The notes: a model not told the origin generated them from the sequence alone. A stretch of 64,000 bases of DNA from Alphaproteobacteria bacterium (GCA_015062235.1 SUUZ01000001.1:191255-255254); one strand, 5' to 3'; shown: positions 48,263-64,000, numbered from the stretch's first letter. A program made the numbers and translations.

Positions 48263-49018
48263 ATGACTGAGCTATTTAGTATAACTTTATATAACTATTT
48301 AATGATTTTTATGCGCATAGGCGCGGTATTTATGCTTATGCCTGGTTTTTCTGCATCATATATCAATGTTCAAATACGACTTATCCTTGCTCTCACAATA
48401 ACTATTATAATACTCCCAATAATAACCCCTCTATTGCCTCCTGAACCAAAAGAATTTAGCATATTATTACAATATATTATAAATGAAATAAGTATCGGGA
48501 TATTTCTAGGTATTGTAATGCAAGTATTGTTTTTTGCCCTAAATCTTGCTGGTTCAATAGCATCTCAAGCAATCGGTTTCTCTAACGCACAAATTTTTGA
48601 TCCAACATTTCAAGCTCAAACAATGTTAATTGAATCCTTTTTAAGCATAATTGCTGTAACATTTATCTTCATAACAAATATTCACCATATAATGTTTGAA
48701 GCAATAATAGATAGTTATCATCTTTTCATTCCTGGTGCTCCAATTCCTTGGGGAGATTTTGCTAGCCATATGACTGATAATGTAACAAAATCATTTACCT
48801 TTGGTTTTAAATTAGGATCACCATTTATTGCCTTTACCATCATATTTTATTCAGGTATTGGACTAGTATCAAGACTTATGCCCCAACTAAATATCTTTTT
48901 CTTGTCTTTACCATTACAAATATATTTAGGTATAGGTGTTCTATTTTTAACTACTCCTGTCATTATAGCATTTTTCTTTCGTTATTTTGATGAGGGGCTA
49001 TACATATTTACTCATTGA
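48263..49018 (+). CDS. fliR: Flagellar/type III export protein FliR
   Basis: FMRIGA..MLMP, AGSIASQAIG, SRLMPQLNIFF. Confidence 0.93.
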   Translation: MTELFSITLYNYLMIFMRIGAVFMLMPGFSASYINVQIRLILALTITIIILPIITPLLPPEPKEFSILLQYIINEISIGIFLGIVMQVLFFALNLAGSIASQAIGFSNAQIFDPTFQAQTMLIESFLSIIAVTFIFITNIHHIMFEAIIDSYHLFIPGAPIPWGDFASHMTDNVTKSFTFGFKLGSPFIAFTIIFYSGIGLVSRLMPQLNIFFLSLPLQIYLGIGVLFLTTPVIIAFFFRYFDEGLYIFTH

Positions 49019-49031
49019 AGGATGCTAAAAA

Positions 49032-50102
49032 ATGGTTACTCCCGAAGACGATGATGACGCATCCAAAACAGAAGAACCTTCCGAACGAAAAATATCCAAA
49101 GCAAAAGAAGAAGGTGATGTTGCAATATCTCAAGATGCTAAAAGTTTTATTATGCTTTTAGGCACCTTATTTATAGTTTGGCTGTTTATCCCGATAATGT
49201 TTAAGTGGCTTAAAGTTATTGGTGCATCATTTATATCTCGTTCTGCTAACACGCATGTTGATACAGGAAATTTTGTTATCCTTCTTCAACAAGGAACATT
49301 CGGATTTTTTAAAGTTATGGCTATTCCCTTCGCCGTTTTTATGATACTAGGAATCTTCGCATCTCTCAGTCAAACAGGTTTTATTTATGCCCCCAAAAAA
49401 ATAGCCCCTGATTGGAATAAACTAAACTTTTTTGCTGCTATCCCTAAATTTATAAATAAGCAAAAAATAGTTGAAAGTATTAAAGGTATTATCAAAATTA
49501 TAGTAGTCACAGCTTTAGCTTATTTTGTCTTAAAACCATACATTGCAAAAACAGAACTACTTCCTACTATGGACACTTATGGAATATTAGATTACATTCA
49601 TGAAATTGTTGTTCTTCTACTGTTTACCATAACTATTGCTGTACTAGTAATTGCAGCAGGAGACTATGCTTGGCAAAAATACTCTCACCTTTTAAAACTA
49701 AGAATGACCAAGCAAGAAGTGAAAGAGGAATATAAACAAATGGAAGGGGATCCTTTAGTCAAATCTAAAATACGTCAAATACGAATGGATCGAGCAAAAC
49801 AGCGTATGATGGAAAATGTCCCCAAGGCCGATGTTGTTATTGTCAACCCAACCCATTATGCTGTAGCATTAGAATATAAAATGAATGAAATGCCTGCTCC
49901 AAAAGTAACCGCTAAAGGTGTCGATAATGTCGCATTACGTATCAAAGCACTTGCCGAAGATAATGACATACCAATTGTTGAAAATCCCCCTCTTGCTCGT
50001 GCATTATTTGCATCAACCGAGCTAGATCAAACTATTCCAACAGAACATTTCCAAGCCGTAGCCGAGGTTATCAATTATGTTATGCAACTTAAAAAACAAT
50101 AA
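49032..50102 (+). CDS. flhB: Flagellar/type III export protein FlhB
   Basis: KTEEPS, MTKQEVKEEYK, NPTH autocleavage motif. Confidence 0.96.
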   Translation: MVTPEDDDDASKTEEPSERKISKAKEEGDVAISQDAKSFIMLLGTLFIVWLFIPIMFKWLKVIGASFISRSANTHVDTGNFVILLQQGTFGFFKVMAIPFAVFMILGIFASLSQTGFIYAPKKIAPDWNKLNFFAAIPKFINKQKIVESIKGIIKIIVVTALAYFVLKPYIAKTELLPTMDTYGILDYIHEIVVLLLFTITIAVLVIAAGDYAWQKYSHLLKLRMTKQEVKEEYKQMEGDPLVKSKIRQIRMDRAKQRMMENVPKADVVIVNPTHYAVALEYKMNEMPAPKVTAKGVDNVALRIKALAEDNDIPIVENPPLARALFASTELDQTIPTEHFQAVAEVINYVMQLKKQ

Positions 50103-52701
50103 TAGACCCGATAAAGCACTACAAAAAGCCTTATTAAAATTAGCTATTGCTCTAATTTTATTAACAATAAGTTTAATATGGTTTTTTCTTTATCCAGAAC
50201 ATCATCTTTATAGTACCATATTAACTTCCGTCATAACAGTTTATTGTTTATTTACAACTATAAAAACCCTATCTGCAGGAGAAGCTGCCATTAGTTATGG
50301 AGGTTTTGCTAATGAAATTATACGTAATGATTTTAAAATTAGACGTATTGAAAATCCATCAAAAGAAACAATTATAGAAAATTCTCCTGCAAAAGATCTA
50401 CTAAAAGAAAACGATGTACTTTCTTTCCTTACAAAATATGTCGCAGAGGGAGCTTCTAATAAAGCAGCTCTATATCGTCTAGAAACTGCAAGAAGAAACT
50501 TAAGTTCTGAAAAAGTAACTATTTCTCTCATATTTAAACAAAATAGCTCTCGAATTTTCAACGATCTTGAATATTTCGAGATATCAGTTCGTCCTATTTA
50601 TCTAAAAAAGCCCAAAATTTTTGAAGGAGCTTTTTCCGTCAAGCGTATAAAACGCGAAACTTACTTTTACTGGACATTAAATAATATAACAGCTAAACAG
50701 AATATGGATTACATATTAAAAGAAGAGTATTCCCATTTACATAACTTTTTAGATTATTTACCTGTAGGTCTTTATACTATTGATAAGAACTATACGGTTC
50801 ATTATGTAAATCATAATTTAGCAAATATGTTACAGTTAAAACCGCATCAACTTATTGGAACATCTCTCAAAGATATTTTGACAAATGATTCCACCATTCC
50901 GCTTAAACAAGATTCATGGAATGGTCCTCTCCATTTTATAAAACACGACGGAACAACAGCTGAAACTTTTACTTTTCAAAACTCATACCGAAATAAAGAA
51001 AAAATTATGATGCGTGGAGTTGTTATTGATAAACTTCCAACCCCAGATGAACTAAAAGAACAAATGAATATATCTCTAGATAATATCAATTGGTTATTCA
51101 ACAATTCACCTATAGGTATCATATTTACTGATATTGATGGCAACATAACAGAACACAACCCTAAAGCAACTAACTTATTTGCTTTAGATGAAGGTAATAA
51201 TATTTTTAATCTACTTACAAATGATAGTTCCAATCTATTAAAACAGACATTTGCAAGAATAAAACATGATAAAACATCATCTCCAATTGAAGTTAAAACC
51301 CCAAACCTCAACCTAAATTTATACATTAGCGCCCTACATCACTTACACCAAAAAAATAGCAAAAATAAATCTGTATTTATTATCTATGCGATAGATGTAA
51401 CTAAGCAAAAAAATTTAGAAATACAATTTGCTCAAGCACAAAAGATGCAAGCCGTTGGACAACTTGCAGGCGGAATAGCTCATGACTTTAACAATCTACT
51501 AACAGCTATGATAGGATTTACCGATTTACTACTTCAAAAACATGGTGTAGGCGACCCTTCATTCGCTGATTTAATTCAAATTAAACAAAATGCTAATCGT
51601 GCAACTTCGCTTGTTCGCCAACTTCTAGCTTTTTCACGCAAACAACCATTAATGCCAAAGCTTATTGATATTACAGACAATTTTGCAGACCTTAGCCAAA
51701 TGCTAAAAAGAATTTTAGGCGAAAAAATTAAACTAACCTTTAATCATGGCAATGATCTTGGTTTTATAAAAGTAGATCCCACACAATTTTCTCAGGTTAT
51801 AATCAATTTAGCTGTAAATGCCAAAGACGCCATGAATGGTAATGGAACCCTCACAATATCAACTTCTAACTATCGCCTAAACGAAAAATATATTTTTGGT
51901 GATGATACTATATATCCTGGTGATTTTGTTGTAATAGATGTCGAAGATACAGGGTGTGGTATACCTCCAGAAAATATTGGACGTATCTTTGACCCATTTT
52001 TTTCTACTAAAGAAAATATTGTTGGTTCAGGAACAGGACTAGGTTTGGCAATGGTTTACGGTATTGTTCGCCAAACGGAAGGTTTTATCAAAGTATCATC
52101 AACAATTAATAAAGGAACAACTTTTTCCATATATCTACCACGCTTTGAAAATGGTCCAGAAGAAGAAAATAATTCCATATCTTCTCCAGAAATTACTGGA
52201 CGTTCAGGTCAGACCATCCTCAAAGTTAAAGAGACTATATCTACCCCAGCTAACATCAATCAAAAAATTATTATGGGATTAAATATTCGTAACACTATAG
52301 ATCGTAGCCATACTGCTGTATCAAAAGGAAATAGACCTGCAAGAATATTATTCGTTGAAGATGAAGATTCAGTTCGTGCATTTGGAATAAGAGCATTAAA
52401 GAAAAAAGGATACGATGTGGTTGATAGTAATTCTGCCGAAAATGCCTTAGAAATACTAGAAAAAGATTCAAACTTTGATCTTCTATTGACCGATATGGTT
52501 CTTCCTGGACTAAGTGGTGCTCAATTAACTAACAAAGTCAAAGAAAAACTACCAAATATTTCTGTAATCTTAGCATCAGGTTATTCTGAAGATATCGCTC
52601 GTAAAGAAGTTGACAATATTAATGAATTTGAATTTATTACTAAACCTTACAGTCTTGGGGACTTGACAGCTAAAGTTTTTGATGTTTTAAATAGAAAATA
52701 A
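50077..52701 (+). CDS. cckA: Hybrid histidine kinase CckA-like (2 TM, PAS, HisKA, HATPase, REC)
   Basis: QAQKMQAVGQLAGGIAHDFNN, GTGLGL, REC domain; directly after flhB. Confidence 0.88.
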   Translation: MLCNLKNNNRPDKALQKALLKLAIALILLTISLIWFFLYPEHHLYSTILTSVITVYCLFTTIKTLSAGEAAISYGGFANEIIRNDFKIRRIENPSKETIIENSPAKDLLKENDVLSFLTKYVAEGASNKAALYRLETARRNLSSEKVTISLIFKQNSSRIFNDLEYFEISVRPIYLKKPKIFEGAFSVKRIKRETYFYWTLNNITAKQNMDYILKEEYSHLHNFLDYLPVGLYTIDKNYTVHYVNHNLANMLQLKPHQLIGTSLKDILTNDSTIPLKQDSWNGPLHFIKHDGTTAETFTFQNSYRNKEKIMMRGVVIDKLPTPDELKEQMNISLDNINWLFNNSPIGIIFTDIDGNITEHNPKATNLFALDEGNNIFNLLTNDSSNLLKQTFARIKHDKTSSPIEVKTPNLNLNLYISALHHLHQKNSKNKSVFIIYAIDVTKQKNLEIQFAQAQKMQAVGQLAGGIAHDFNNLLTAMIGFTDLLLQKHGVGDPSFADLIQIKQNANRATSLVRQLLAFSRKQPLMPKLIDITDNFADLSQMLKRILGEKIKLTFNHGNDLGFIKVDPTQFSQVIINLAVNAKDAMNGNGTLTISTSNYRLNEKYIFGDDTIYPGDFVVIDVEDTGCGIPPENIGRIFDPFFSTKENIVGSGTGLGLAMVYGIVRQTEGFIKVSSTINKGTTFSIYLPRFENGPEEENNSISSPEITGRSGQTILKVKETISTPANINQKIIMGLNIRNTIDRSHTAVSKGNRPARILFVEDEDSVRAFGIRALKKKGYDVVDSNSAENALEILEKDSNFDLLLTDMVLPGLSGAQLTNKVKEKLPNISVILASGYSEDIARKEVDNINEFEFITKPYSLGDLTAKVFDVLNRK

Positions 52702-52702
52702 A

Positions 52703-53431
52703 ATGACAAACAATAATAACATAACGCAGTTAGCACTTGATTTTCCTCACCGTCCAAGCTTAGGACGTGAAGATTTCATGGTAGCAAAATGTAATTTTGA
52801 AGCTGTATCAACCATTGATTTATGGCCTAGTTGGCCCTATTTCTCAATTTGTATATATGGTCCTTCAGGATGTGGAAAGACACACCTTGCTAATGTTTTT
52901 GCTCAAATGGTTGCTTCAAGCACTCCACATCCATACAGAATACCTTTTATAAAAGCAGAGCAGCTCGAAAAAAACATGGCTCACACATTGTTTGAAACAA
53001 GCTCACAAATAGTTATAGAAAATTTACATAATTTAAAAAATCAAGAAGCTTTGTTTCACATTTATAACACATATCGAGATCTTGGTGGTAATATCTTATT
53101 TACATCAGATATTGCCCCAGCTCGTATAAATTTTACGCTAGCTGATCTTCGTTCTCGCTTAAATATTGTTCCTGCTCTTGAAATAAAAGAACCTGACGAC
53201 GAACTACTAATGGCTCTTTTAGTAAAACTATTTCTTGATCGTCAAATTACGCCAACTCAAGAGCTATTAAATTTCCTTATAAAAAATATTCATCGCTCTT
53301 TTTCGTACGTTCGTAAACTTGTGGAGGAAATTGATAACATATCATTAGCCAAAAAAAGAGCTATAACCATAAATATAGCAAAAGAAGCTATCGCCACCTT
53401 AGATTCGGACTTACAATTTAATCTTTTTTAG
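52703..53431 (+). CDS. hdaA: DnaA regulatory inactivator HdaA
   Basis: QLALDF clamp motif, REDF, GPSGCGKTHL, DLRSRL. Confidence 0.85.
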   Translation: MTNNNNITQLALDFPHRPSLGREDFMVAKCNFEAVSTIDLWPSWPYFSICIYGPSGCGKTHLANVFAQMVASSTPHPYRIPFIKAEQLEKNMAHTLFETSSQIVIENLHNLKNQEALFHIYNTYRDLGGNILFTSDIAPARINFTLADLRSRLNIVPALEIKEPDDELLMALLVKLFLDRQITPTQELLNFLIKNIHRSFSYVRKLVEEIDNISLAKKRAITINIAKEAIATLDSDLQFNLF

Positions 53432-53532: not shown

Positions 53533-55191
53533 TTATCTGCGCCTCAAAAATGATGGAATTTCTAAATTAACCTTATCATCAATACTATCCTCAAAATTTG
53601 GGGCAACAGGCTCTTGAACCCTTGGAGTTTGTTTTTGCTGATTCTTTTTAGCAATAGATCGCCCTGTCATAATTTCAATAAAACTACGACGACGAGGTTC
53701 ATTATCACTAACAATCAACTGTTCAACCTCTTCTACTGGCTTATTAACTACTGGTGTTGGATTATGATTTGGAAACAATTCTGGCTCCTCTTCTGGCATT
53801 TTCAATGCCGATTTAGGAACAAAAAAACTATCCTGATTACTTAGAACATTATTAATTTGACTATTTGTTACCTCTTCTTTTTCCTCCACAGGCTTATTGA
53901 TAATAGCTTTAAACAAAGAAGATGAATTAGGCATATCAGATAATACTTCTGATTTAGCTATATTATCAAAATCATCAAAAACAACTTCTTTAACTGAACT
54001 ATCAAACTCTGGTTGAGGCATAACAGATATTGCTGCTGTTTCGACAACTTCTTCAATATCCTCTTCTTTATTTTCTACCTGTTCAGCCATTTGCTGTAAA
54101 ACATCTTCCATTTTAGAATCTAACTCTTCTTCATGTACCTCAACAGATTCTACTACAGGCTCTGATTGCATAACAACAGAATCTACCTTTTTTACCTGTT
54201 CAACAATTCTTGGTCTTGCGGTATCATCTATACCTGTTGCAACAATAGAAACCCTTATTTTTCCATCTAAAGAAGCATCAAAACTTGAACCAAAGATAAT
54301 ATTAGCATCTTCATCAACCTCTTCTTTAATTCTGTTAACGGCATCATCAACTTCCATCAATGTAATATCTTGGCTAGCCGTAATGTTAATTAAAACACCT
54401 TTTGCTCCTTTCATAGAACAATCATCCAACAAAGGATTAGACAATGCTTGTTCAGCAGCTCTGACAGCTCTATCCTCACCCTCTGCTTCACCAGTACCCA
54501 TAATAGCCTTACCCTTATCTTCCATAATTGCTTTCACATCAGCAAAGTCAAGATTGATAAGTCCTGGCATAATCATCAGATCGGTAATTGAACGCACACC
54601 ATCATACAAAACATTATCAGCCATAATAAAAGCATCAGATAACTTTGTATTTTTATCTGCGATTCTAAACAAGTTTTGATTAGGAATAACAATAATACTA
54701 TCAACTTCTTTAGTAAAATTAGCTAATGCATTTTCTGCTGTTTCAGAGCGTTTTTTTCCCTCAAACTGAAATGGTTTAGTAACTACACCAACTGTTAATA
54801 TACCTTTATCCTTAGCTATCTTAGCAACAACAGGAGCCGCTCCAGAACCTGTTCCTCCACCCATACCTGCAGTAATAAACACCATATTAGCGCCTTCTAA
54901 TTCGCGCTCTATATCTTCCAAAGCTTCTTCAGCTGCTAATTTTCCAATTTCAGGACGAGCTCCAGCCCCCAAACCCTTAGTTGTTTCTAAACCAAGCTGA
55001 ATTCTTCTTTGTGTTTTGGAGTTCTCTAAAGCTTGAGCATCTGTATTAGCTACAATAAAATCAACACCCTCTAATTTTTTAACAATCATATTATTGACAG
55101 CATTACCACCGCCACCACCAACACCAATAACTGAAATTCTTGGTTTTAATTGAACCATATTTTTCTCAGGAACAGCCAACTTGATACTCAT
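53533..55191 (-). CDS. ftsZ: Cell division protein FtsZ (long acidic linker)
   Basis: [23 protein letters not shown]-terminal [10 protein letters not shown]. Confidence 0.99.
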
Positions 55192-55297
55192 AGTATTTCT
55201 TACTCCTCAAACTTCTTCAAATTAAATATTTAATTCGGATTGTAAACTAAATACATTAAGTTTTGGTTACTATAAAAAACAAAATAAAATAAAAAAA

Positions 55298-56557
55298 CTA
55301 ATCCCACATGGTTTTCAGCCACATACCAATATTATCTACAATTCTATTGCCTGAATTTATTGGTTTACTGATTATTTTTTTAGGCCTACGTTCACTATAA
55401 TTAGCACCAAACAATAACATTCCAACGCATGTAGCAAATGAAGGAGTATATAAATTATCTGGTAAATTTAAAATATTTTTTGGCCGTCCTAATCTTACTT
55501 GCTTATCCAAAACCATCGCTGCAACATCAACAACACCAGAAAGCTGAGAAGCTCCTCCAGTTAATACAACTCTATGTGAAGAATCATTAATTAACCCTGC
55601 TTCATACAATTTACGATTTACCATTTCAAATGTTTCTTCGATTCGAGGTGCTATAATATTAACCAACTCTGAACGAGGAATCTGTTTAATACAACTATCA
55701 TCCTCTTCCCCTACAGGATAAACATTTATCGTATCAATACTATCTTGCTGTGTTAAAAAAGCACAACCATGCAAGGTCTTTAATCTCTCTGCATGAGAAA
55801 AAGATGTTGTTAAACCATATGCAATATCATTTGTAACATTATTCCCACCTACAGGAATCGATGCAAAATAAATCGGATGCCCATTTCTAAATGAAGTAAT
55901 AGATGTTGTACCTCCACCCATATCAATAACTGTAGCACCCATCTCTTTTTCATCATCTACCAAACAAGCAATACCTGAAGCATACGAATCAAAAACTCTT
56001 CCAGAAACTCCAAGATGAGCATTCTCAATTACTGTATTTACATTTTTACAAATGTGCTCTGGAATTAAACCCAACAAAATATTTATTGATAACTCATCTG
56101 CAAATAAATTATGAGGATCTTTCAGTAACTCTCCACCATCTAAACGATAACCATTATGAATACAGTGTATCAAGCTATACTCACCAACATTTACTTTCGC
56201 AGTTCCTTTTTGATACACTTTCTCTAAATCTGTATCATTGATAGGTCGATTCTTATTAAGTGGAATAGAAGCAGTTTTTAACATGCTTCGCACCTTTTCT
56301 CCACCAATACTTACAATAACCCTATCAATTCGTTCATTAGCCATCTGTTCAGCATCTTGTACCGCATTACCAACAGCTATTGTTGCCTGACCAATATCTG
56401 TTACAACACCATTTTTAATACCACGTGAAGCATTATAACCATAGCCAACTATATTAATTTTTTTATCTTTAGAAAGCTTAGCAATAACACAACAAACCTT
56501 AGATGAACCAATATCTAAAGCTGCAATTGTCGATGCCTTTCCAAAAGTATGTTGCAA
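55298..56557 (-). CDS. ftsA: Cell division protein FtsA (TTG start)
   Basis: LDIGSSK, IDMGGGTT, AERLK, VLTGGAS. Confidence 0.97.
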   Translation of the reverse strand: MQHTFGKASTIAALDIGSSKVCCVIAKLSKDKKINIVGYGYNASRGIKNGVVTDIGQATIAVGNAVQDAEQMANERIDRVIVSIGGEKVRSMLKTASIPLNKNRPINDTDLEKVYQKGTAKVNVGEYSLIHCIHNGYRLDGGELLKDPHNLFADELSINILLGLIPEHICKNVNTVIENAHLGVSGRVFDSYASGIACLVDDEKEMGATVIDMGGGTTSITSFRNGHPIYFASIPVGGNNVTNDIAYGLTTSFSHAERLKTLHGCAFLTQQDSIDTINVYPVGEEDDSCIKQIPRSELVNIIAPRIEETFEMVNRKLYEAGLINDSSHRVVLTGGASQLSGVVDVAAMVLDKQVRLGRPKNILNLPDNLYTPSFATCVGMLLFGANYSERRPKKIISKPINSGNRIVDNIGMWLKTMWD

Positions 56558-56568
56558 AATAAAAACTC

Positions 56569-57417
56569 CTATATCTCTCGCTCTTGCTTAGTTTTAACTG
56601 ATTTATTTTTTCGCAACTTAACTGTTACTCTACCCTTTAATCTTAAATCTATGATAGTTAATTTACGTTTAAGAATTCCTTTCGTTGCATCTAATTTTAA
56701 TAATTTTCGCCAAGCCTCTTCTATATTTTCCTCTGGCAATTTAATTGTTATACCAGATCTTATATCATCTAAAATTATATTCCATCTTCTTTTTGATATA
56801 AAATTAGCTACCTTTATCCTAGACAAGTAACTATCATCAATATCCCTAACCATTTTTAAAAAAGACAGTATATTTTCTGCAGCTCCAGCCCCTACAACCA
56901 ACAAAATTGGTTTATCTGGTTTATAATTAGCTTCAATAACATATCCATCCATATCTAAAGGATAAAATTTTTCATTAAGTTGCCAAATTGCCAAAACATT
57001 TTTTTCTTTAAGTTCAATCTTTAATATATTAGGAAAAAAACTCCTTACAACATTAACATCTCTTACCCATGGCAACGTTTCTAGACGTCGTTTAATCAAC
57101 TGAACATCCACTTTTAATAGGTTATCTCCAGATTTAAGAGATAATAACTCGTTTATTTCATTCAAATCGGTACGTTCTCTTCCTATTAAAATAATATCAT
57201 CAAGAGCAAAACCTTCTTTACCTATATAATCCAAAACCCAATTTCGAGTTTCTACAATTTTTTTGTTAACCAAATCATTTTTTAAAACAACAATTAATCC
57301 ACCAAATAAAAAAGTAAAAAATAACACAAACAGCGTAGCCCTCATTCGTTTAGGCCACTCTATTGTAGGAAAAACCACTCCGTCTTCTATCCCTTTTTTA
57401 GTTTGATTTTCAGTCAT
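56569..57417 (-). CDS. ftsQ: Cell division protein FtsQ
   Basis: Single TM, POTRA LPWVRDV, RRWN, IDLR. Confidence 0.92.
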   Translation of the reverse strand: MTENQTKKGIEDGVVFPTIEWPKRMRATLFVLFFTFLFGGLIVVLKNDLVNKKIVETRNWVLDYIGKEGFALDDIILIGRERTDLNEINELLSLKSGDNLLKVDVQLIKRRLETLPWVRDVNVVRSFFPNILKIELKEKNVLAIWQLNEKFYPLDMDGYVIEANYKPDKPILLVVGAGAAENILSFLKMVRDIDDSYLSRIKVANFISKRRWNIILDDIRSGITIKLPEENIEEAWRKLLKLDATKGILKRKLTIIDLRLKGRVTVKLRKNKSVKTKQEREI

Positions 57418-57419
57418 TA

Positions 57420-58343
57420 CTACTTTGCAACACCAACTTTTTTAATTTCCCATTCCAAAACTATAGATGTTTCTTTCTTTACTGTATCAACTATCTTATC
57501 ACCTAAATCTTCAATATCCTTAGCCGTAGCAGTTCCTGTATTTACCAAAAAATTACAATGCACAGATGAGACCTCTGCTCCATTAACTTTAAAATTATTA
57601 CTTCCTGTCTTTTTTATCAATTCCCAAGCTTTCAATCCTTCAGGGTTCTTAAATGTTGATCCTGCTGTTTTAACATTATGTGGCTGGCTTTTTTTTCTAT
57701 AAGCCTTATGTTCATCAATAATTTGCGATGTTTTTTCCGCCTTCTGTCTTTCTATCTTTAATATTAAAGATGTAATAATCCATTCATCTGGAAAAAAGCT
57801 ACTCCTATATCCTAAATTAAAATCATCTGCAACCACTTCTAACATTTTTCCTTCTCTATCAATCACCGTGGCCCCAATCAAAACATCCTTCAATTCTTTA
57901 CCAAAACACCCTGCATTTGTTCTAACAGCACCACCAAGACACCCAGGTATTGAGACTAAAAATTCTAAACCACCTATTTCATTCGCTAACATAATTTTTT
58001 TAAGATCTGCATTTTTTAAACCTGCACCACAAATAAGTTTGTTATCTTTAACTTCCCATCGCTTATAAAATTTATTATCAAGTTTAATAACCACACCAGG
58101 AATTCCTCCGTCCCTAACCAAAAGATTAGATCCACCTCCAATTACAAATATTGGTAAATTATATGGAATATTTTTCATAAAATTTGCTAAATCATCATCA
58201 TTATCAGGAAAATACATAACTTCTGCTGGTCCACCAACACCTAACCACGTATATTTATTCAACAGCTCATTTGAAAGATATTTTCCTTTTACTTGAGGAA
58301 GCAATTTAATCAATTGATTTTTTCTTTTAGTAAACCAGTTCAT
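57420..58343 (-). CDS. murB: UDP-N-acetylenolpyruvoylglucosamine reductase
   Basis: GGGSNLLV, IPGCLGG..NAG, GSTFKNP, HCNF. Confidence 0.97.
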   Translation of the reverse strand: MNWFTKRKNQLIKLLPQVKGKYLSNELLNKYTWLGVGGPAEVMYFPDNDDDLANFMKNIPYNLPIFVIGGGSNLLVRDGGIPGVVIKLDNKFYKRWEVKDNKLICGAGLKNADLKKIMLANEIGGLEFLVSIPGCLGGAVRTNAGCFGKELKDVLIGATVIDREGKMLEVVADDFNLGYRSSFFPDEWIITSLILKIERQKAEKTSQIIDEHKAYRKKSQPHNVKTAGSTFKNPEGLKAWELIKKTGSNNFKVNGAEVSSVHCNFLVNTGTATAKDIEDLGDKIVDTVKKETSIVLEWEIKKVGVAK

Positions 58344-58355
58344 ACCTTTTTCCTC

Positions 58356-59456
58356 CTAATTTAATCCTTCAACAACATCTGCCAAGCGTTCAGCTGCATC
58401 AACAATCGCCAATTCTTTTACAGATTTCGACATATCCTTCATTATTTGAGGATTTTCCATAAAATCTTTTAAAATTTTAACCATTTTATCAATAGTAAAA
58501 TCTTTTTGCTCAATAACCAAAGCTGCGTTATTTTTAGCAAAATCCAACGCATTATAATATTGATGATTATCTGCTGCTATAGGCAAAGGAACCAAAACTG
58601 ATGGCAATCCAGCTGCTGCAATTTCATAAACAGATGAAGCTCCTGCTCGAGAAACAATAATATCAGCCTTTTTATATAGCTCAGGCATATTTTCAAAAAA
58701 TGAATTAATAGTAACATCTGAAATTACATTTTTATACAGAAATTCTATCTCTTTTTCTTCACCTTTACGACATTGCTGATAAATCACAAGCTTCTTTTTT
58801 TCTTCATCAGATAACATCTTAATCGCTTCTGGAACAACATCTGCAAATATTTTTGCTCCTTGAGATCCCCCTAAAATGACTAACACCATTTTATCATCAG
58901 CTGTCTTTGCACTGTATTCATTATTATGAAGACTTGCAATACTCTTTCTAATAGGCATTCCACTCAAAACTGTTTTAACTCCATCTGGAGTATTTTTAAC
59001 TGTTCTAAAACTTTGAGCTACTACAACAGCAAATTTTGCTAAAATTCTATTGGTACGACTCATTACTGAATTTTGCTCATGAATTACTAAAGGAATTCTT
59101 AAAATAACAGCCGCTATTGCTGTAGGAAAAGATGCATAACCTCCAAAACCCACAACACAATCTGGTCGTTTCCTAAATAAATAATACATAGCCTGCACAA
59201 TACCCAAAGCAACTTTAGTTAAACTAACAAATTTCGTTAGAATAGATTTACCAACAACACTACCCGATAATATTGCTTTATTCTCAATCTCTCCAAGTTT
59301 TCCTTTATAATTATTCAAACCTCTTGTATCTGTATACAAAATTACTTCACAATCTCTTTTTGCAAGTTCTGTTGCTAAAGCATCCGCTGGATATACATGC
59401 CCCCCTGTACCTCCTGCCGTTACTACAACTAATTTTCTATTTTTAACCTTCATCAT
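58356..59456 (-). CDS. murG: Lipid I N-acetylglucosaminyltransferase
   Basis: GGTGGH, HEQN, GGSQGA, SRAGASS, HQYYNA. Confidence 0.97.
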   Translation of the reverse strand: MMKVKNRKLVVVTAGGTGGHVYPADALATELAKRDCEVILYTDTRGLNNYKGKLGEIENKAILSGSVVGKSILTKFVSLTKVALGIVQAMYYLFRKRPDCVVGFGGYASFPTAIAAVILRIPLVIHEQNSVMSRTNRILAKFAVVVAQSFRTVKNTPDGVKTVLSGMPIRKSIASLHNNEYSAKTADDKMVLVILGGSQGAKIFADVVPEAIKMLSDEEKKKLVIYQQCRKGEEKEIEFLYKNVISDVTINSFFENMPELYKKADIIVSRAGASSVYEIAAAGLPSVLVPLPIAADNHQYYNALDFAKNNAALVIEQKDFTIDKMVKILKDFMENPQIMKDMSKSVKELAIVDAAERLADVVEGLN

Positions 59457-60585
59457 CCTTATTCTCCGCATGAATATTTCTTCTAGTTAATGCTAACAAC
59501 ATTCCAATTCCCATAGAAGATCCTAATAATGATGATCCACCATATGATATCAAAGGCAAAGCCATACCTTTTGTTGGGCCTAATTGTAAAGTTGATGCCA
59601 TATTAACAAATGCTTGCAAACCAAAACTAACCGCCAATCCACATACAGACAAAACTATAAACATATTATCATCTTTACCTGACAACCACATAGACCTTAT
59701 AACTGTAGTTCCATAAGCCAGCACAATAAGCATACAAAACAACATCCCATATTCCTCTGCTGCAACAGGAAAAATAAAATCTGTATGAGCATCTGGAATA
59801 TGCCATTTTACAACCCCTTCACCGACACCTACACCAAGCCACCCACCATTTTTAAATGCTTCTAAAGATCTTTTTACTTGATATGCAGGTTCCCCTCCTA
59901 AAATACCGCTTAATAGCTGCTCAACTCTAACTTGAACATGAGGCAAAACCAAATAAGATACACCAAAACCAACCACCAACACCATGCCCACAATCACAAC
60001 ATTTTTAATCCGTACTCCAGCTAAAAACAACTGAATAAACCAAACTGCAGCAACAACTACTGTCATGCCATAATCAGGCTGTGCTAATAACAAAAGACAA
60101 GTGATTCCACATAAAACAACACTAACAATAACACCTGGAAAATTCTTATAACGACGTTGCATCTCAAACAACCAAGCAGTACAAACAATAAATGTAGGCT
60201 TTAAAAATTCAGATGGTTGGATTTGAAATCCCACAGACAACCATCTTCTTGCCCCTTTAATTTCAGTTCCAAAGAAAAAAGTTGTTATAACCAAAATTAT
60301 AGCACCAACATACCCTAAAATAGCAAAACGTCTTATCCATTTTAATCCAAGCATTGAAAAAAACATCATAACACCTGTTGCAATACACAAATAAGCACCA
60401 TGTCTATAAACAAAATGATAGGTATTACGACCAATTCTCTCTGCTACAGCAGGTGATGCAGACAAACTCAATATAACGCCACAAGCCATCAAAAAAACGA
60501 CTGCTGCCAACAACAATTTATCTACCGTCCACCACCAATTAGCAACAACATTTTTACTTGAACGAGAAAAAGACAACAGCACCAA
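59443..60585 (-). CDS. ftsW: SEDS peptidoglycan polymerase FtsW
   Basis: GARRWL, QPSEFLK, QPDYG, HTDFIF, LPLISYGGSS. Confidence 0.95.
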   Translation of the reverse strand: MVLLSFSRSSKNVVANWWWTVDKLLLAAVVFLMACGVILSLSASPAVAERIGRNTYHFVYRHGAYLCIATGVMMFFSMLGLKWIRRFAILGYVGAIILVITTFFFGTEIKGARRWLSVGFQIQPSEFLKPTFIVCTAWLFEMQRRYKNFPGVIVSVVLCGITCLLLLAQPDYGMTVVVAAVWFIQLFLAGVRIKNVVIVGMVLVVGFGVSYLVLPHVQVRVEQLLSGILGGEPAYQVKRSLEAFKNGGWLGVGVGEGVVKWHIPDAHTDFIFPVAAEEYGMLFCMLIVLAYGTTVIRSMWLSGKDDNMFIVLSVCGLAVSFGLQAFVNMASTLQLGPTKGMALPLISYGGSSLLGSSMGIGMLLALTRRNIHAENKDDEG

Positions 60586-60595
60586 TACTACTCCC

Positions 60596-61672
60596 TTATT
60601 TGCTATAAAACGACATCAACGCTAAAATAGCTAAAACAATTCCTACCAACCAAAATCTAAACACAACTTTAGTTTCTTCCCAACCACTTTGTTCAAAATG
60701 ATGGTGTATTGGAGCCATTTTAAAAAAGCGTTTGCCTTTTGTATACCTAAACCAACCAATTTGTATCATTACAGAAACAGACTCCATAACAAAAACACCA
60801 CCAGCTACAGCGAGTAATATTTCTTGTTTTAACATTACAGCCACAACACCCAAAAAAGCCCCTAACGCTAATGAACCAGTATCTCCCATAAATACACTTG
60901 CAGGTTTAGCATTAAACCATAAAAATCCCAAACATGCACCAACGATAGCTGCACACATAACAGCAACCTCTGCAACTCCAGGAATAATAGGAACATAATA
61001 CTCCAAAGCGAGTACTCCACCAGCAATATATGCTGCAATCATAAATACTATAAATACCGAAGCTAAAAGTCCTGATGCTAAACCATCTAAACCATCACTT
61101 AAATTAACCCCATTAGAAGCACCTGCAATTACAATCATAGCAAAAGGAATATACAGCCACCTCAAATTAATATTCCAACCAGGTGTATAGGGAAAATTCA
61201 AAATAAATCTAGTATCTTCTGGCGTAACATAACATATAACTAAAATTGCAGCCAAAGCCGTTGAAAATTGTAACAACAACTTCATTTTTGCACTCAAAGC
61301 ATTAGCTGTTTGTTTAGTAACCTTCAAATAATCATCAATAAAACCTACTACACCATATATAACCAAAACAACAATTCCAACCCATACAAACAAATTTTTC
61401 AAATCACAAAAAAGCATAAATGAAAAAATTGATGCCCCCAACATCAGAATTCCCCCCATAGTAGGAGTACCTTTTTTAGTTAAAAGATGTGATTGCGGAC
61501 CATCTTCCCTAATTGGCTGTCCTTTTTTTTGATGTTTATGTAAAAAAACAATAAGTTTTTTACCACAAAGTAATGAAATTATTAAAGATGCCAAAAAAGA
61601 CATAAAACAACGCATATAAGGAGAGAAAAAATATTCCCCCCAATTAAAATTATTAAAAAGATAGACCAACAT
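60596..61672 (-). CDS. mraY: Phospho-N-acetylmuramoyl-pentapeptide transferase
   Basis: TPTMGG, DGLDGL, FMGDTGS, APIHHHFE. Confidence 0.97.
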   Translation of the reverse strand: MLVYLFNNFNWGEYFFSPYMRCFMSFLASLIISLLCGKKLIVFLHKHQKKGQPIREDGPQSHLLTKKGTPTMGGILMLGASIFSFMLFCDLKNLFVWVGIVVLVIYGVVGFIDDYLKVTKQTANALSAKMKLLLQFSTALAAILVICYVTPEDTRFILNFPYTPGWNINLRWLYIPFAMIVIAGASNGVNLSDGLDGLASGLLASVFIVFMIAAYIAGGVLALEYYVPIIPGVAEVAVMCAAIVGACLGFLWFNAKPASVFMGDTGSLALGAFLGVVAVMLKQEILLAVAGGVFVMESVSVMIQIGWFRYTKGKRFFKMAPIHHHFEQSGWEETKVVFRFWLVGIVLAILALMSFYSK

Positions 61673-61872
61673 ACATTCATCCTTCTAAATATAAAGATTT
61701 ATCTACTCTAAACTACCACGCAAATCTAAACAAATATTAAACAAAAAATTATCTTCATAAATTAAAATAATAAAATTTATAAACATATAACTTGACATCA
61801 AAATAAATAACAAATACATTCAGCACCCTTAATCTGATTATTTATTTTTAAGTCTAATTTAATTATATTATT

Positions 61873-62232
61873 ATGAAACAGGCTATTTATCTTACAGAAA
61901 AAAAAGCTTACCTTGACATTGATGTTAAAGTTCTAAAGCAAAATACCGATTGTAATCAAATGGTTAAAATTATTAAAGATGCTCTAATGAAAGAGATATC
62001 TGCAAATCTTCCAAAACCTGAAACAACTGAAAGAAGTTTCAAGCTAGCAGCTTTGACCTCTAGCAGTGATATTAGAGTAAAACTCTACTCTTATATTGAA
62101 GGTAAAGGCTTAGTACTTTCCATCTGTCGTCCAGGATTAAATGACATGTTCTTTTACAAAAAAGGAACAAATTTCATTACAGTTATGGGAGACCCTTGTA
62201 CCGATGAAATTGTCGAAACAATTTCTTGGTAA
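61873..62232 (+). CDS. Hypothetical protein (ORFan-like)
   Basis: 119-aa ORF with upstream TTGACA-17-TACATT and a downstream hairpin at 62258-62292. Confidence 0.6.
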   Translation: MKQAIYLTEKKAYLDIDVKVLKQNTDCNQMVKIIKDALMKEISANLPKPETTERSFKLAALTSSSDIRVKLYSYIEGKGLVLSICRPGLNDMFFYKKGTNFITVMGDPCTDEIVETISW

Positions 62233-62326
62233 GCTCCTTAACTAATAAAACTTATCTAAGACCATAAAAGCTACTTGCTTTTATGGTCTTTTACTTTATA
62301 TTTAAGAAAAATTAAGGAGAAACATA

Positions 62327-63541
62327 ATGCAAAACGGAGCTCGTTACCAAGCTGTTTTAGAAATATTAACAGAAGTATTTAAAGATCAAACTCCTGCCGA
62401 AAAAATCATTAACAATTATCTCAGATTACGCAAATACATAGGCTCTAAAGATCGCCGTTTTATAACAGATTTAACTTGGTACATCATACGTAATCGTCTA
62501 AAGCTAAGTTTTGACAGCAAATCCTCAGATCCTCGTAGACTTTTATTATACACATTAAAAGACAAATTAGAAAATGTTTTTGATAATTCGGCTTATGGGC
62601 TAACTCATCTAACTCCAGATGAAAAAGAATGGTTACAAAATGAAAATGAAGAACCATACCCTAACTATGTTGAAGCAGAATGTCCCCATTGGATTTTCAA
62701 TAAAATAAAAAATATTGATTTTTGCAAAGCTCTAAACCAACCAGCAACTACAGATATACGCACTCATAACATTGGTAGAGATGAACTTCAAAAAAAATTA
62801 CAAGCTGAAGGTATTGAAACATATTCAGGCAGCTATTCTCCTTATTGTCTTAAAATTGATGGGCGATTAGTTCTAAATAATTGCATAGCATGGCAAGATG
62901 GACTTTTAGACATCCAAGATGAAGCTAGCCAAATTGCTGCGATTTTAACAGATGTCAAACCTCAACATAAAATAATTGATTATTGTTGTGGAGCGGGTGG
63001 TAAATCTTTAGCAATTAGCAATATACTAAATAATCAAGGCACTATTTTAGCCTACGATATTGATATCAAAAGACTTAACGCTATAAAACCTCGTATAAGT
63101 AGACTAAAAGTAAAAAATATTGAATTAACAGATATTATTGCCGATTCTGATAAGAATTTTGATCGTTTCATACTAGATGCTCCTTGCTCTGGAAGTGGAA
63201 CATGGCGTCGTTCTCCTGATGCTAAATTTCGCTTAACTGAAGAAAAATTGTATGGATTAACTAAGATACAAGAAAATTTACTTGATATTGCTAAAACAAA
63301 AACAAAAATTGGAGGACGCATAATTTATATAACTTGTTCCATCTTAGAAGATGAAAACGAAAATATTATCAACCGCTTTTTACAAACAAATAAAAACTTC
63401 ACACCTATCAACATTAAATCTCTTTGGAACCAAAAACTTTCAGCTCCTTATCCCCACAATTCAGAAGTATTTTTAAGAATGTCGCCTTTTACAACTCAAA
63501 CAGATGGTTTTTTTGTTTGTATATTGGAACGTATCGCCTAA
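62327..63541 (+). CDS. RsmB/NOP2-family RNA cytosine-5 methyltransferase
   Basis: IQDEASQ, DYCCGAGGK, DAPCSGSG, YITCS, TDGFF. Confidence 0.92.
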   Translation: MQNGARYQAVLEILTEVFKDQTPAEKIINNYLRLRKYIGSKDRRFITDLTWYIIRNRLKLSFDSKSSDPRRLLLYTLKDKLENVFDNSAYGLTHLTPDEKEWLQNENEEPYPNYVEAECPHWIFNKIKNIDFCKALNQPATTDIRTHNIGRDELQKKLQAEGIETYSGSYSPYCLKIDGRLVLNNCIAWQDGLLDIQDEASQIAAILTDVKPQHKIIDYCCGAGGKSLAISNILNNQGTILAYDIDIKRLNAIKPRISRLKVKNIELTDIIADSDKNFDRFILDAPCSGSGTWRRSPDAKFRLTEEKLYGLTKIQENLLDIAKTKTKIGGRIIYITCSILEDENENIINRFLQTNKNFTPINIKSLWNQKLSAPYPHNSEVFLRMSPFTTQTDGFFVCILERIA

Positions 63542-63861
63542 AGTTTTGCATTTTGTTGATAAATGTAAGATAAAATTTCCGCTACTGCTGCAAATGCTTC
63601 TATTGGTATTTCTTGATTAATATCCACAGCTTTCAATATTTGTAACAAATCAGCATCTTTTCTAACCTCTATTCCATGCTCTTCAGCTAATGCAACAATT
63701 TTTTCAGCTATATTTCCTTGTCCTTTAGCTAATACTATAGGCGCATTATTTTTTTCATTATCATACCCCAACGCAACTGCATAATCTTCCTCTTGACCTG
63801 TGGAAAATTTAGAACTTGCGTTGTCTTTAGTTGTAAATCTGTTATTATCCTCGTTAGACAT
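63538..63861 (-). CDS. Stand-alone FlhB C-terminal-domain protein (EscU/YscU-like switch family)
   Basis: AVALGY...APIVLAKG.G.IAEKI...EIP...AVAEIL; lacks TM region and NPTH. Confidence 0.88.
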   Translation of the reverse strand: MSNEDNNRFTTKDNASSKFSTGQEEDYAVALGYDNEKNNAPIVLAKGQGNIAEKIVALAEEHGIEVRKDADLLQILKAVDINQEIPIEAFAAVAEILSYIYQQNAKL

Positions 63862-64000
63862 CAAGACCTCATCAATATTTTGCGTATATTATAATAAGAC
63901 TTATATAATAGCTTAGCAAGATATTTATTTGGCACATATATTGCATGTATTTAAGTGTGGGGACACTTAAGTTTTGATATTGGGGAATATAAATGGATTT

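Follow-up and report, generated by a model that had tools for sequence, protein, structure and literature searches.

In alphaproteobacteria the division and cell wall (dcw) gene cluster interleaves the five ligase genes of peptidoglycan stem-peptide synthesis (murE, murF, murD, murC, and ddl) with genes for the membrane steps and the divisome, and carries mraZ-rsmH-ftsL-ftsI directly 5′ of the mur genes. The usual order cited in a first-pass annotation of the present sequence, murE-murF-mraY-murD-ftsW-murG-murC-murB(-ddl), is indeed found in genomes G027 (locus L029), G082 (L183), and G058 (L184). Here we describe a stretch of 64,000 nucleotides (the window; C6:191255-255254) from the genome of an Alphaproteobacteria bacterium (G000, whose contigs are given C-numbers). 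In this stretch the dcw cluster keeps mraY, ftsW, murG, murB, ftsQ, ftsA, and ftsZ in the canonical order and orientation and lacks all five ligase genes, which lie singly elsewhere in the genome. The explanation that we consider probable is that the membrane/divisome block was retained and its ligase slots were emptied by a combination of relocation and displacement.

The closest described counterpart of the MurC-family gene of G000 is the Mpl/LdcA system of Escherichia coli. Like Mpl, the G000 protein is a MurC-related ligase with UDP-MurNAc (UDP-N-acetylmuramic acid) as its predicted substrate, and its type is linked to ldcA across carriers; again like Mpl, this MurC-like type coexists with a true MurC in most carriers, and sister genera of G000 keep it with MurF only. 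Unlike Mpl, it lacks the (S/T)AFFDKRSK insert, has a QPH... motif instead of EPRSNT, and forms a clade of its own, and unlike E. coli Mpl, the G000 protein is the only MurC-family enzyme in its genome. Mpl is reported to have weak L-Ala activity, and mpl on a multicopy plasmid to complement an E. coli murC(ts) mutant (PMC3060825). Among alphaproteobacteria, Caulobacter crescentus is described in two reports as being without LdcA and Mpl (PMC13046382, PMC11980594). A replacement of MurC1 by MurC2 is reported in Frankia (PMC7231273), where likewise a divergent second murC outside the usual context takes the place of the canonical copy in part of the lineage; Frankia belongs to a different phylum, and the abstract of that study reports neither a link to ldcA nor motif remodelling. 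In the literature searched we found, besides the Frankia case, no clade of MurC-like, ldcA-linked ligases set apart from MurC and Mpl and no such ligase as the sole MurC-family enzyme of a genome, nor any description of a correlation between motif and gene content, of a MurD2 derivative without MurL, or of genomes with only a MurC-like ligase and MurF.

For the MurD-family gene, the relevant system is MurD2/MurL. In organisms without MurI, MurD2 adds L-Glu and MurL epimerizes it; the two are encoded by a murL-murD2 operon in Xanthomonas oryzae, and the substitutions E197D/R358K switch the chirality preference of MurD2 (PMC8788868). Finally, loss of dcw gene order has been described outside rod-shaped Gram-negative bacteria (PMC10214165).

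The ligase-free block and its conservation

The G000 genome comprises 1,425,098 bp in 13 contigs at ~33% G+C (31 to 36% in individual contigs), with 100% completeness and 0.45% contamination; its close relatives are uncultured gut or rumen alphaproteobacteria represented by metagenome-assembled genomes (MAGs). Genes in the window were identified by open reading frame (ORF) calling and NCBIfam/Pfam profile scans, the assignments of MraY, MurG, MurB, and FtsW resting on full-length family matches. The block reads as follows.

60596-61672, minus strand: mraY, phospho-MurNAc-pentapeptide transferase, at the start of the block (TIGR00445, 357.7 bits; cut-off, 192)
59443-60585, minus strand: ftsW, SEDS family (TIGR02614, 320.8 bits, just below the cut-off of 337.5; PF01098, 229 bits)
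58356-59471, minus strand: murG (TIGR01133, 308.1 bits; cut-off, 250)
57420-58343, minus strand: murB (NF010480, 340 bits; cut-off, 259)
56569-57417, minus strand: ftsQ (PF08478, POTRA_1; PF03799, FtsQ_DivIB_C)
55298-56557, minus strand: ftsA (TIGR01174, 330.2 bits; cut-off, 176)
53533-55191, minus strand: ftsZ, final gene of the block (TIGR00065, 409.2 bits; cut-off, 295)

ORFs and family matches thus agree with the gene order of the first-pass annotation, and the three junctions that it quoted are exact by ORF coordinates: 10 bp between mraY and ftsW, 12 bp between murG and murB, and 2 bp between murB and ftsQ. These are, respectively, the sites that murD, murC, and ddl occupy in the usual order. 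At the remaining junctions ftsW and murG overlap by 29 bp, ftsQ and ftsA are 11 bp apart, and ftsA and ftsZ 106 bp, all within a single contig of 315 kb. No murE, murF, or ftsI lies upstream of mraY. The absence of ligase remnants, another of the earlier claims, also held: tblastn of the five G000 ligases plus four canonical alphaproteobacterial MurC/MurD sequences gave no match at E ≤ 1e-3 anywhere in the window, the best between 53000 and 63000 having E = 0.034.

The identical ligase-free order was present in 15/15 loci of the same genus (15 fetched from the 18 congeners drawn, the fragmented G001, G007, and G011 being omitted), and ligases were missing from the block in 20/20 other genera of the family, each sampled by one genome. 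The arrangement is therefore a conserved feature and not a chance one. In six of the 20 genera (g112, g114, g120, g121, g122, and g125) murG has also gone from the block, which there reads mraY-ftsW-murB-ftsQ-ftsA-ftsZ. The suggestion that exactly the ligases had been lost hence stands insofar as no ligase remains in the block, and fails insofar as murG also leaves it, so that the losses are not strictly ligase specific. In G000, mraZ-rsmH-ftsL-ftsI form a separate block on contig C8, a further departure from the canonical cluster beside the family-wide ligase-free state.

An intermediate arrangement is seen in G019, a genome of the same order and another family (79% complete), in which the cluster reads murE-[MurF remnant]-mraY-ftsW-murG-murC-murB-ftsQ-ftsA-ftsZ, the remnant being a tail of ~270 amino acids (aa) with a decayed P-loop, in frame with murE in a single 771-aa ORF directly before mraY (L026, G019:C39 4708-6990). 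The full MurF of G019 is encoded on another contig and is 50% identical to that of G000. This is the state expected where the function passes to a copy outside the cluster and the one left inside first decays and is later deleted; G019 would preserve such an intermediate. Together these genomes give a stepwise series for clean internal gene loss, from the full cluster via G019 with its murF remnant to the present family and on to the genera that have also lost murG.

Identity and relationships of the ligases outside the block

Four genes with a Pfam Mur_ligase_M match and one true Ddl (Dala_Dala_lig_C) were found in G000. Each stands alone among unrelated neighbors, on a contig other than that of the cluster.

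C7:32371-33780: murE, DAP type (NF001124, 529 bits; cut-off, 476), ~1.2 kb from the contig end
C12:75310-76632: murF (TIGR01143, 370 bits; cut-off, 289), between glyA and nrdR
C12:37000-37914: ddl (NF002378, 367 bits; cut-off, 243)
C1:179179-180561: MurC-like gene (TIGR01082, 281 bits; cut-off, 335.1), also below the cut-off of the mpl model (TIGR01081, 147.6 bits; cut-off, 388.7)
C9:128884-130290: MurD-like gene (TIGR01087, 265.3 bits, passing the cut-off of 211.95)

Scattered Mur-ligase matches, four to five each, occur in all 18 congeners drawn, and orthologous solo ligase genes recur across all of them. murA, murI, alr, and four penicillin-binding protein genes are also present in G000 outside the cluster. 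With intact genes for all five ligase functions elsewhere in a 1.43-Mb, 100%-complete genome, the earlier proposal that stem-peptide synthesis had been handed over as a unit does not hold, and no evidence was found for the unusual stem peptide that had been offered as one option. The outcome that it had named as refuting its reading, ordinary vertically inherited ligase genes elsewhere in the genome, was not obtained for murC and murD. MurE, MurF, and Ddl look ordinary. MurE carries the motif DDNPR, DNPR being a sequence that we take to be the signature of enzymes adding meso-diaminopimelate (DAP), and is 48% identical to the in-cluster MurE of G019. The decayed murF of G019 had raised the suspicion that the G000 MurF was a foreign replacement, which was rejected on account of its closest relatives across the phylum, in-cluster alphaproteobacterial MurF proteins (267 and 245 bits); we therefore read it as the probable product of relocation or duplication of an ordinary gene.

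The MurC-like gene is the sole MurC-family gene of G000, and a query with the MurC of G019 recovers only this gene, at 27.7% identity. G019 itself holds both types: a canonical in-cluster MurC (TIGR01082, 531 bits), 31% identical to the G000 MurC-like protein (as against 27.7% in the separate query just mentioned), and a solo orthologue 44% identical to the G000 gene. A MurC passing TIGR01082 was also present in 5/5 carrier genomes tested outside the group, namely Phenylobacterium terrae, Peiella sedimenti, a Micavibrio MAG, a Rhodospirillum MAG, and “Candidatus Scatocola.” In a scan of reference genomes with an alignment of MurC-like proteins as the query, none of the 80 loci returned was flanked by murG or murB. 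The conserved neighbor is instead an LD-carboxypeptidase gene of the Peptidase_S66 (LdcA) family, which adjoins the MurC-like gene in 26/36 nongut loci and 30/44 loci of the gut clade.

Of ten proteins scanned with TIGR01082, the nine members of the MurC-like clade scored 268 to 325 bits, all below the cut-off, the tenth being the in-cluster MurC of G019; genuine Mpl proteins score similarly to the MurC-like clade on this model (254 to 277 bits). A FastTree phylogeny of 85 rows separated the MurC-like clade, which spans several phyla, from canonical MurC and Mpl with support of 100. In an IQ-TREE analysis (LG+C20, 33 rows, MurD outgroup), the clade received a Shimodaira-Hasegawa-like approximate likelihood ratio test (SH-aLRT) value of 80, and canonical MurC (88) paired with Mpl (89). 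With TIGR01081, genuine Mpl was detected in 106 of the 151 Pseudomonadota sampled, and no alphaproteobacterium of the sample was among them. By the curated models and its placement in the trees, the G000 gene thus belongs with neither MurC nor Mpl and is assigned to a separate clade linked to ldcA. A search of the ESM Atlas with the MurC-like protein returned only generic Mur-ligase clusters, without taxonomic or functional resolution.

Two observations were made alongside. “Candidatus Scatocola” carries a murD-murC pair of canonical type outside the cluster, adjoining rpoZ (L138; G185/G241 C6:63939-66423), its MurC being very divergent (356 bits, long branch) and coexisting with an ldcA-linked MurC-like gene. 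A 287-aa ORF overlapping the start of the MurC-like gene in G000 was considered as a family-wide partner and rejected: it has no Pfam family and aligns only with a close relative (43%), and similar ORFs in genomes of high G+C content look spurious.

The MurD-like gene also departs from the alphaproteobacterial pattern. Its ten best matches among the 151 Pseudomonadota were solo, nonalphaproteobacterial genes (168 to 216 bits), the top alphaproteobacterial match being an in-cluster MurD at 132 bits. A conserved MurL-like gene of ~450 aa precedes six of the seven solo MurD genes fetched, a layout that matches the published murL-murD2 operon. In IQ-TREE the G000 group fell within the MurD2-type clade (92/92) and not with canonical MurD (88/85). 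Residues were compared at three positions identified in the MurD2/MurL study, equivalent to Asp182, Lys319, and Lys348 of the E. coli enzyme, the first and last of which correspond to MurD2 Glu197 and Arg358.

Canonical alphaproteobacterial MurD and g126: D, K, K
MurL-linked genes, including G019, G013, and G016: E, I, R
G000, G004, G005, G014, and G017: V, I, N

The G000 protein hence fails the canonical D/K/K residues though it passes TIGR01087. It lies in the clade of MurL-linked ligases and shares their Ile at the Lys319 position; unlike MurD2, it has Val and Asn for Glu197 and Arg358, and its genome has MurI and no MurL, so that of the MurD2/MurL system only the placement fits. In contrast, G012, G013, G016, and G019 have the full murL-murD2 set without MurI, as in the described pathway: among 31 genomes the MurL profile matched exactly these four, a MurL-like gene lies directly 5′ of murD in G019, G013, and G016, and a search for MurI found none in any of them or in G001 (86% complete), whereas G000 and 14 of its 18 congeners have it. 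No MurL was detected in G000 by tblastn with two MurL-like queries or by a seven-sequence profile, and a hidden MurL was rejected on the same grounds, with only noise near murD at E ≤ 10.

The G000 MurD would thus be a MurD2 descendant from whose lineage MurL was lost, which differs from MurD2 at both chirality positions and which co-occurs with MurI. The natural reading is that it would use D-Glu. The occurrence of murL-murD2 without MurI in a nested clade of three species (G012, G013, and G016) suggests that the whole D-Glu module has been exchanged within the family. In G295 (g129) two MurD-type genes in tandem, with 47% and 51% identity to the G000 MurD, come after a murL-like gene (C10:38706-42659). 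An 801-aa ORF lies 5′ of murD in G000 (C9:130182-132587; L010:10182-12587) and overlaps the annotated murD start by ~107 nt; its match to MscK/MscS channels is confined to the C-terminal third. As TIGR01087 aligns from residue 43, murD probably begins downstream of its annotated start.

Motifs, ligase content, and competing explanations

The amino acid-binding residues reported for Haemophilus influenzae MurC are Tyr346 and His348, in DDYxHHP, and His376, Arg377, and Arg380, in QPHRYxR (PMC3060825). The corresponding motifs in the proteins compared here are listed below.

Canonical MurC: DDY(G/A)HHP ... QPHRY(S/T)R
Mpl: DDFAHHP ... EPRSNT, plus the AFFDKRSK insert (carried by E. coli Mpl)
MurC-like, general: VIDDFAHNPDK ... 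QPHGF(S/A/G)P(M/L/T)R
MurC-like, G000: NDFAHNP and QPHTPFSAVNTG
MurC-like, remodelled, window genus: QPHTPFSAxNTG
MurC-like, remodelled, g111, g117, g118, and g129: QSHKP(F/L)SARTTG
MurC-like, remodelled, g115: QSHSAFSAQNTG

Aligned to canonical MurC, the G000 protein, placed in the MurC-like clade by the trees but with a remodelled motif and no ldcA next to its gene, keeps the His residues, lacks both Arg residues, and has Phe in place of Tyr. All remodelled proteins (window genus, g111, g115, g117, g118, and g129) form one clade (SH-aLRT, 99), and remodelled and general copies occur together in G008, G012, G013, and G016 of the window genus and in g115. Across 121 genomes of the order, a MurC passing TIGR01082 was present in only five, G019 and four of g126 (356 to 374 bits); 115 had the MurC-like type alone, and G191 had no match.

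These motif types were compared with the number of Mur ligases, counted as Pfam Mur_ligase_M matches over 61 genomes of the family.

Four to five matches: g1, g111, g115, g117, g118, g119, g124, g126, g127, g129, and g131
Two, rarely three, matches: g112, g114, g116, g120, g121, g122, g123, g125, and g128 (e.g., L219-L226, L237)
No match: g113 (G191) and g130 (G296)

The genomes of the two-match genera are mostly 99 to 100% complete (G294 of g128, 87%). One of their matches is the MurC-like gene and the other is of MurF type, as assigned from the span and score pattern of the Pfam matches and not by individual annotation; by the same pattern there was no MurE-type match, nor was there any match to the G000 MurD. 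All nine genera carry the general motif (10/10 genomes read). The genera that keep MurD and MurE have either a canonical-like MurC, as in G019, g126, and g131 (the g131 protein scoring 327 bits and having DYAHHH and EPHQISR), or a MurC-like protein whose motif is remodelled or, in g119, g124, and g127, a milder variant. In our reading the general type would be a peptide ligase of the Mpl kind and the remodelled type would substitute for MurC, a step made plausible by the reported rescue of murC(ts) by multicopy mpl and the weak use of L-Ala by Mpl (PMC3060825). The two-ligase sister genera may be obligate scavengers of peptidoglycan stem peptides. G191 and G296, each 99% complete and without a Mur_ligase_M or TIGR01082 match, still keep mraY-ftsW-murG-murB-ftsQ-ftsA-ftsZ (L148, L165).

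G000 also has genes for recycling proteins, the first four below identified by tblastn with E. coli queries.

C1:144272-145441: AmpG (38% identity, E = 3e-67)
C6:55628-56446: NagZ (29% identity, E = 6e-35)
C1:69872-70252: AmpD (33% identity, E = 6e-21)
C2:12107-12637: MpaA (28% identity, E = 7e-16)
C6:261233-262216 and C6:274536-275414: two LdcA homologues

DapF was not found in G000 with the TIGR00652 profile, nor were DapA, DapB, DapD, DapF, and LysA with E. coli queries in tblastn at E ≤ 1e-3. By these queries G000 is predicted to be auxotrophic for DAP and lysine and to have a complete gene set for importing and processing muropeptides. As the genes for DAP synthesis were not found, DAP probably comes from imported or recycled muropeptides via AmpG, NagZ, AmpD, LdcA, and MpaA. 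The salvage option of the first-pass annotation, in which premade peptides would be salvaged by an Mpl-type ligase acting on UDP-MurNAc, is thus partly borne out, by this gene set, by the lack of detectable DapA/B/D/F and LysA, and by the nine genera with only MurC-like and MurF.

Under the explanation that we favor, the membrane and divisome genes would stay together as one tight block and the five ligase genes would go solo elsewhere by two processes. Ordinary murE, murF, and ddl would have relocated out of the cluster. The other in-cluster genes would have been displaced by relatives encoded elsewhere and the originals then deleted, canonical murC giving way to a member of the ldcA-linked MurC/Mpl-like clade and canonical murD to a descendant of the MurD2 lineage. 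In the resulting pathway, MurA and MurB would make UDP-MurNAc; the remodelled MurC-like ligase would add L-Ala, and recycled peptides may remain among its substrates; the MurD2-derived ligase would add D-Glu supplied by MurI, MurE would add meso-DAP, and MurF would add D-Ala-D-Ala from Alr and Ddl; MraY, MurG, and FtsW would complete the pathway. Gene content, synteny, clade membership, motif differences, and patterns of co-occurrence are features of the genomes as compared here; we infer all substrate specificities, and the direction of some of the evolutionary steps.

A simpler account would have all five ligases as ordinary, vertically inherited alphaproteobacterial genes moved by rearrangement in a small AT-rich genome, the low MurC and MurD scores reflecting fast evolution. 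MurE, MurF, and Ddl fit it, as do the departure of murG from the cluster in 6/20 genera, the reported loss of dcw order outside rod-shaped Gram-negative bacteria (PMC10214165), and the fact that MurD still exceeds its NCBIfam cut-off. However, it is already contradicted for murC and murD, and we regard it as improbable: canonical in-cluster MurC and solo MurC-like genes stand side by side in G019, and likewise both types are found in the five outside carriers; members of the MurC-like clade occur in several phyla, with an ldcA synteny of their own; and the affinities of MurD are with MurL-linked MurD2-type genes from other classes, not with the in-cluster MurD of alphaproteobacteria. That a chimeric bin or a misassembled cluster merely places the ligases on other contigs has next to no likelihood. 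The assembly is a draft of 13 contigs and murE lies close to a contig end, as such an artefact might have it, but the junctions of the block are inside one 315-kb contig and the order recurs in all 15 congeneric loci and all 20 genera, the contigs share a G+C content of 31 to 36% with contamination of 0.45%, and the solo ligases have orthologues in all congeners.

Harder to set aside, if still unlikely, is an account by salvage only, in which the MurC-like protein would be a pure Mpl-type ligase loading imported or recycled tri- or tetrapeptide onto UDP-MurNAc, and MurD and MurE would merely repair incomplete stems or be on their way out. The linkage of the clade to ldcA, the nine sister genera with just MurC-like and MurF, and the AmpG, AmpD, NagZ, MpaA, and two LdcA homologues of a genome with no detected DAP pathway are all in its favor. 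Yet MurD, MurE, and MurI are intact and conserved in the window genus (four to five Mur-ligase matches in 18/18 congeners; MurI in 14/18), MpaA would destroy the tripeptide, and the motif is remodelled exactly where MurD and MurE are kept and canonical MurC is absent and is unchanged where both are lost.

Several points weigh against relocation plus displacement as set out above. The addition of L-Ala by the MurC-like ligase and the use of D-Glu by the MurD-like ligase are inferred from co-occurrence. The motif rule is not clean, since g119, g124, and g127 keep MurD and MurE with only mildly altered motifs. ldcA is not adjacent to the MurC-like gene in G000 or in its eight nearest relatives of the locus set (L042-L049). 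Separation of the MurC-like clade is moderate under the better model (SH-aLRT of 80 in a quick search), and for both this tree and that of MurD long branches and compositional bias were flagged. The MurL-positive trio G012, G013, and G016 (L187, L192) is nested inside the genus in a six-protein tree, and MurL is patchy within the family, occurring in 2/23 genera. One hidden Markov model and five E. coli queries underlie the reported absence of the DAP pathway, and an asd-like gene near murD scores below its cut-offs. Finally, every relative compared is a MAG, and kinship among them limits the independence of the counts.

A bolder interpretation goes beyond relocation and displacement, and we put it forward as a tentative possibility, to be taken as one joint claim. 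The family would live on foreign or its own recycled peptidoglycan peptides, with the ldcA-linked MurC-like protein performing the role of Mpl as a third, undescribed class of ligase joining peptides to UDP-MurNAc. In nine genera MurC, MurD, and MurE would then be dispensable, MurC-like and MurF alone making these organisms obligate scavengers of stem peptides; in the window genus a duplicate of the salvage ligase would have become the L-Ala ligase that replaces MurC; and a MurD2-type L-Glu ligase would have become a D-Glu ligase via changes at the very two positions where laboratory substitutions switch chirality.

MurC, MurD, and MurE are regarded as universally essential, and as targets for antibiotics. 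The replacement of MurC by a recycling-type relative, and the genera that apparently have that ligase and MurF alone, would show how far the cytoplasmic steps can be rewired, and point to reliance, in the gut, on peptidoglycan fragments from the environment. The altered motif of the MurC-like protein and the Val/Asn pair at the chirality positions of MurD would be natural experiments on the determinants of specificity.

Flanks of the block

The block lies between the following features.

62327-63541, plus strand: rsmB, 16S rRNA m5C967 methyltransferase, bounding the cluster upstream (PF01189, 141.6 bits; cut-off, 27)
61673-62326: spacer of 654 bp between mraY and rsmB, with a 119-aa ORF and a 33-bp self-complementary stretch
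61873-62232, plus strand: the 119-aa ORF, divergent from mraY, with no NCBIfam or Pfam family
52703-53431, plus strand: hdaA, convergent on ftsZ (HdaA model match below the curated cut-off)
50077-52701, plus strand: cckA, convergent on ftsZ (CckA model match below the curated cut-off)

Against the RsmB models proper the rsmB product scores below cut-off (NF011494, 227.8 bits against 319; TIGR00563, 178.4 bits against 269). cckA and hdaA flank the block in 10/15 congeneric loci. The divergent ORF upstream of mraY that the first-pass annotation had called an orphan is one: besides being without a family, it has no tblastn match at E ≤ 1e-8 in the 15 congeneric loci. Without family or conservation, it is doubtful as a functional part of the locus. 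The same spacer measures only ~180 bp in G002 and G003.

The self-complementary stretch, at ~62258-62290 in the spacer just 5′ of rsmB, has 30 of its 33 positions paired; apart from its own inverted 33-mer, the spacer sequence is single copy in G000. Close to rsmB, a stand-alone paralogue of the FlhB C-terminal domain (108 aa, TIGR00789) is encoded at 63538-63864 on the minus strand, and a complete fliR-flhB pair lies 5′ of cckA, at 48263-50102 on the plus strand.

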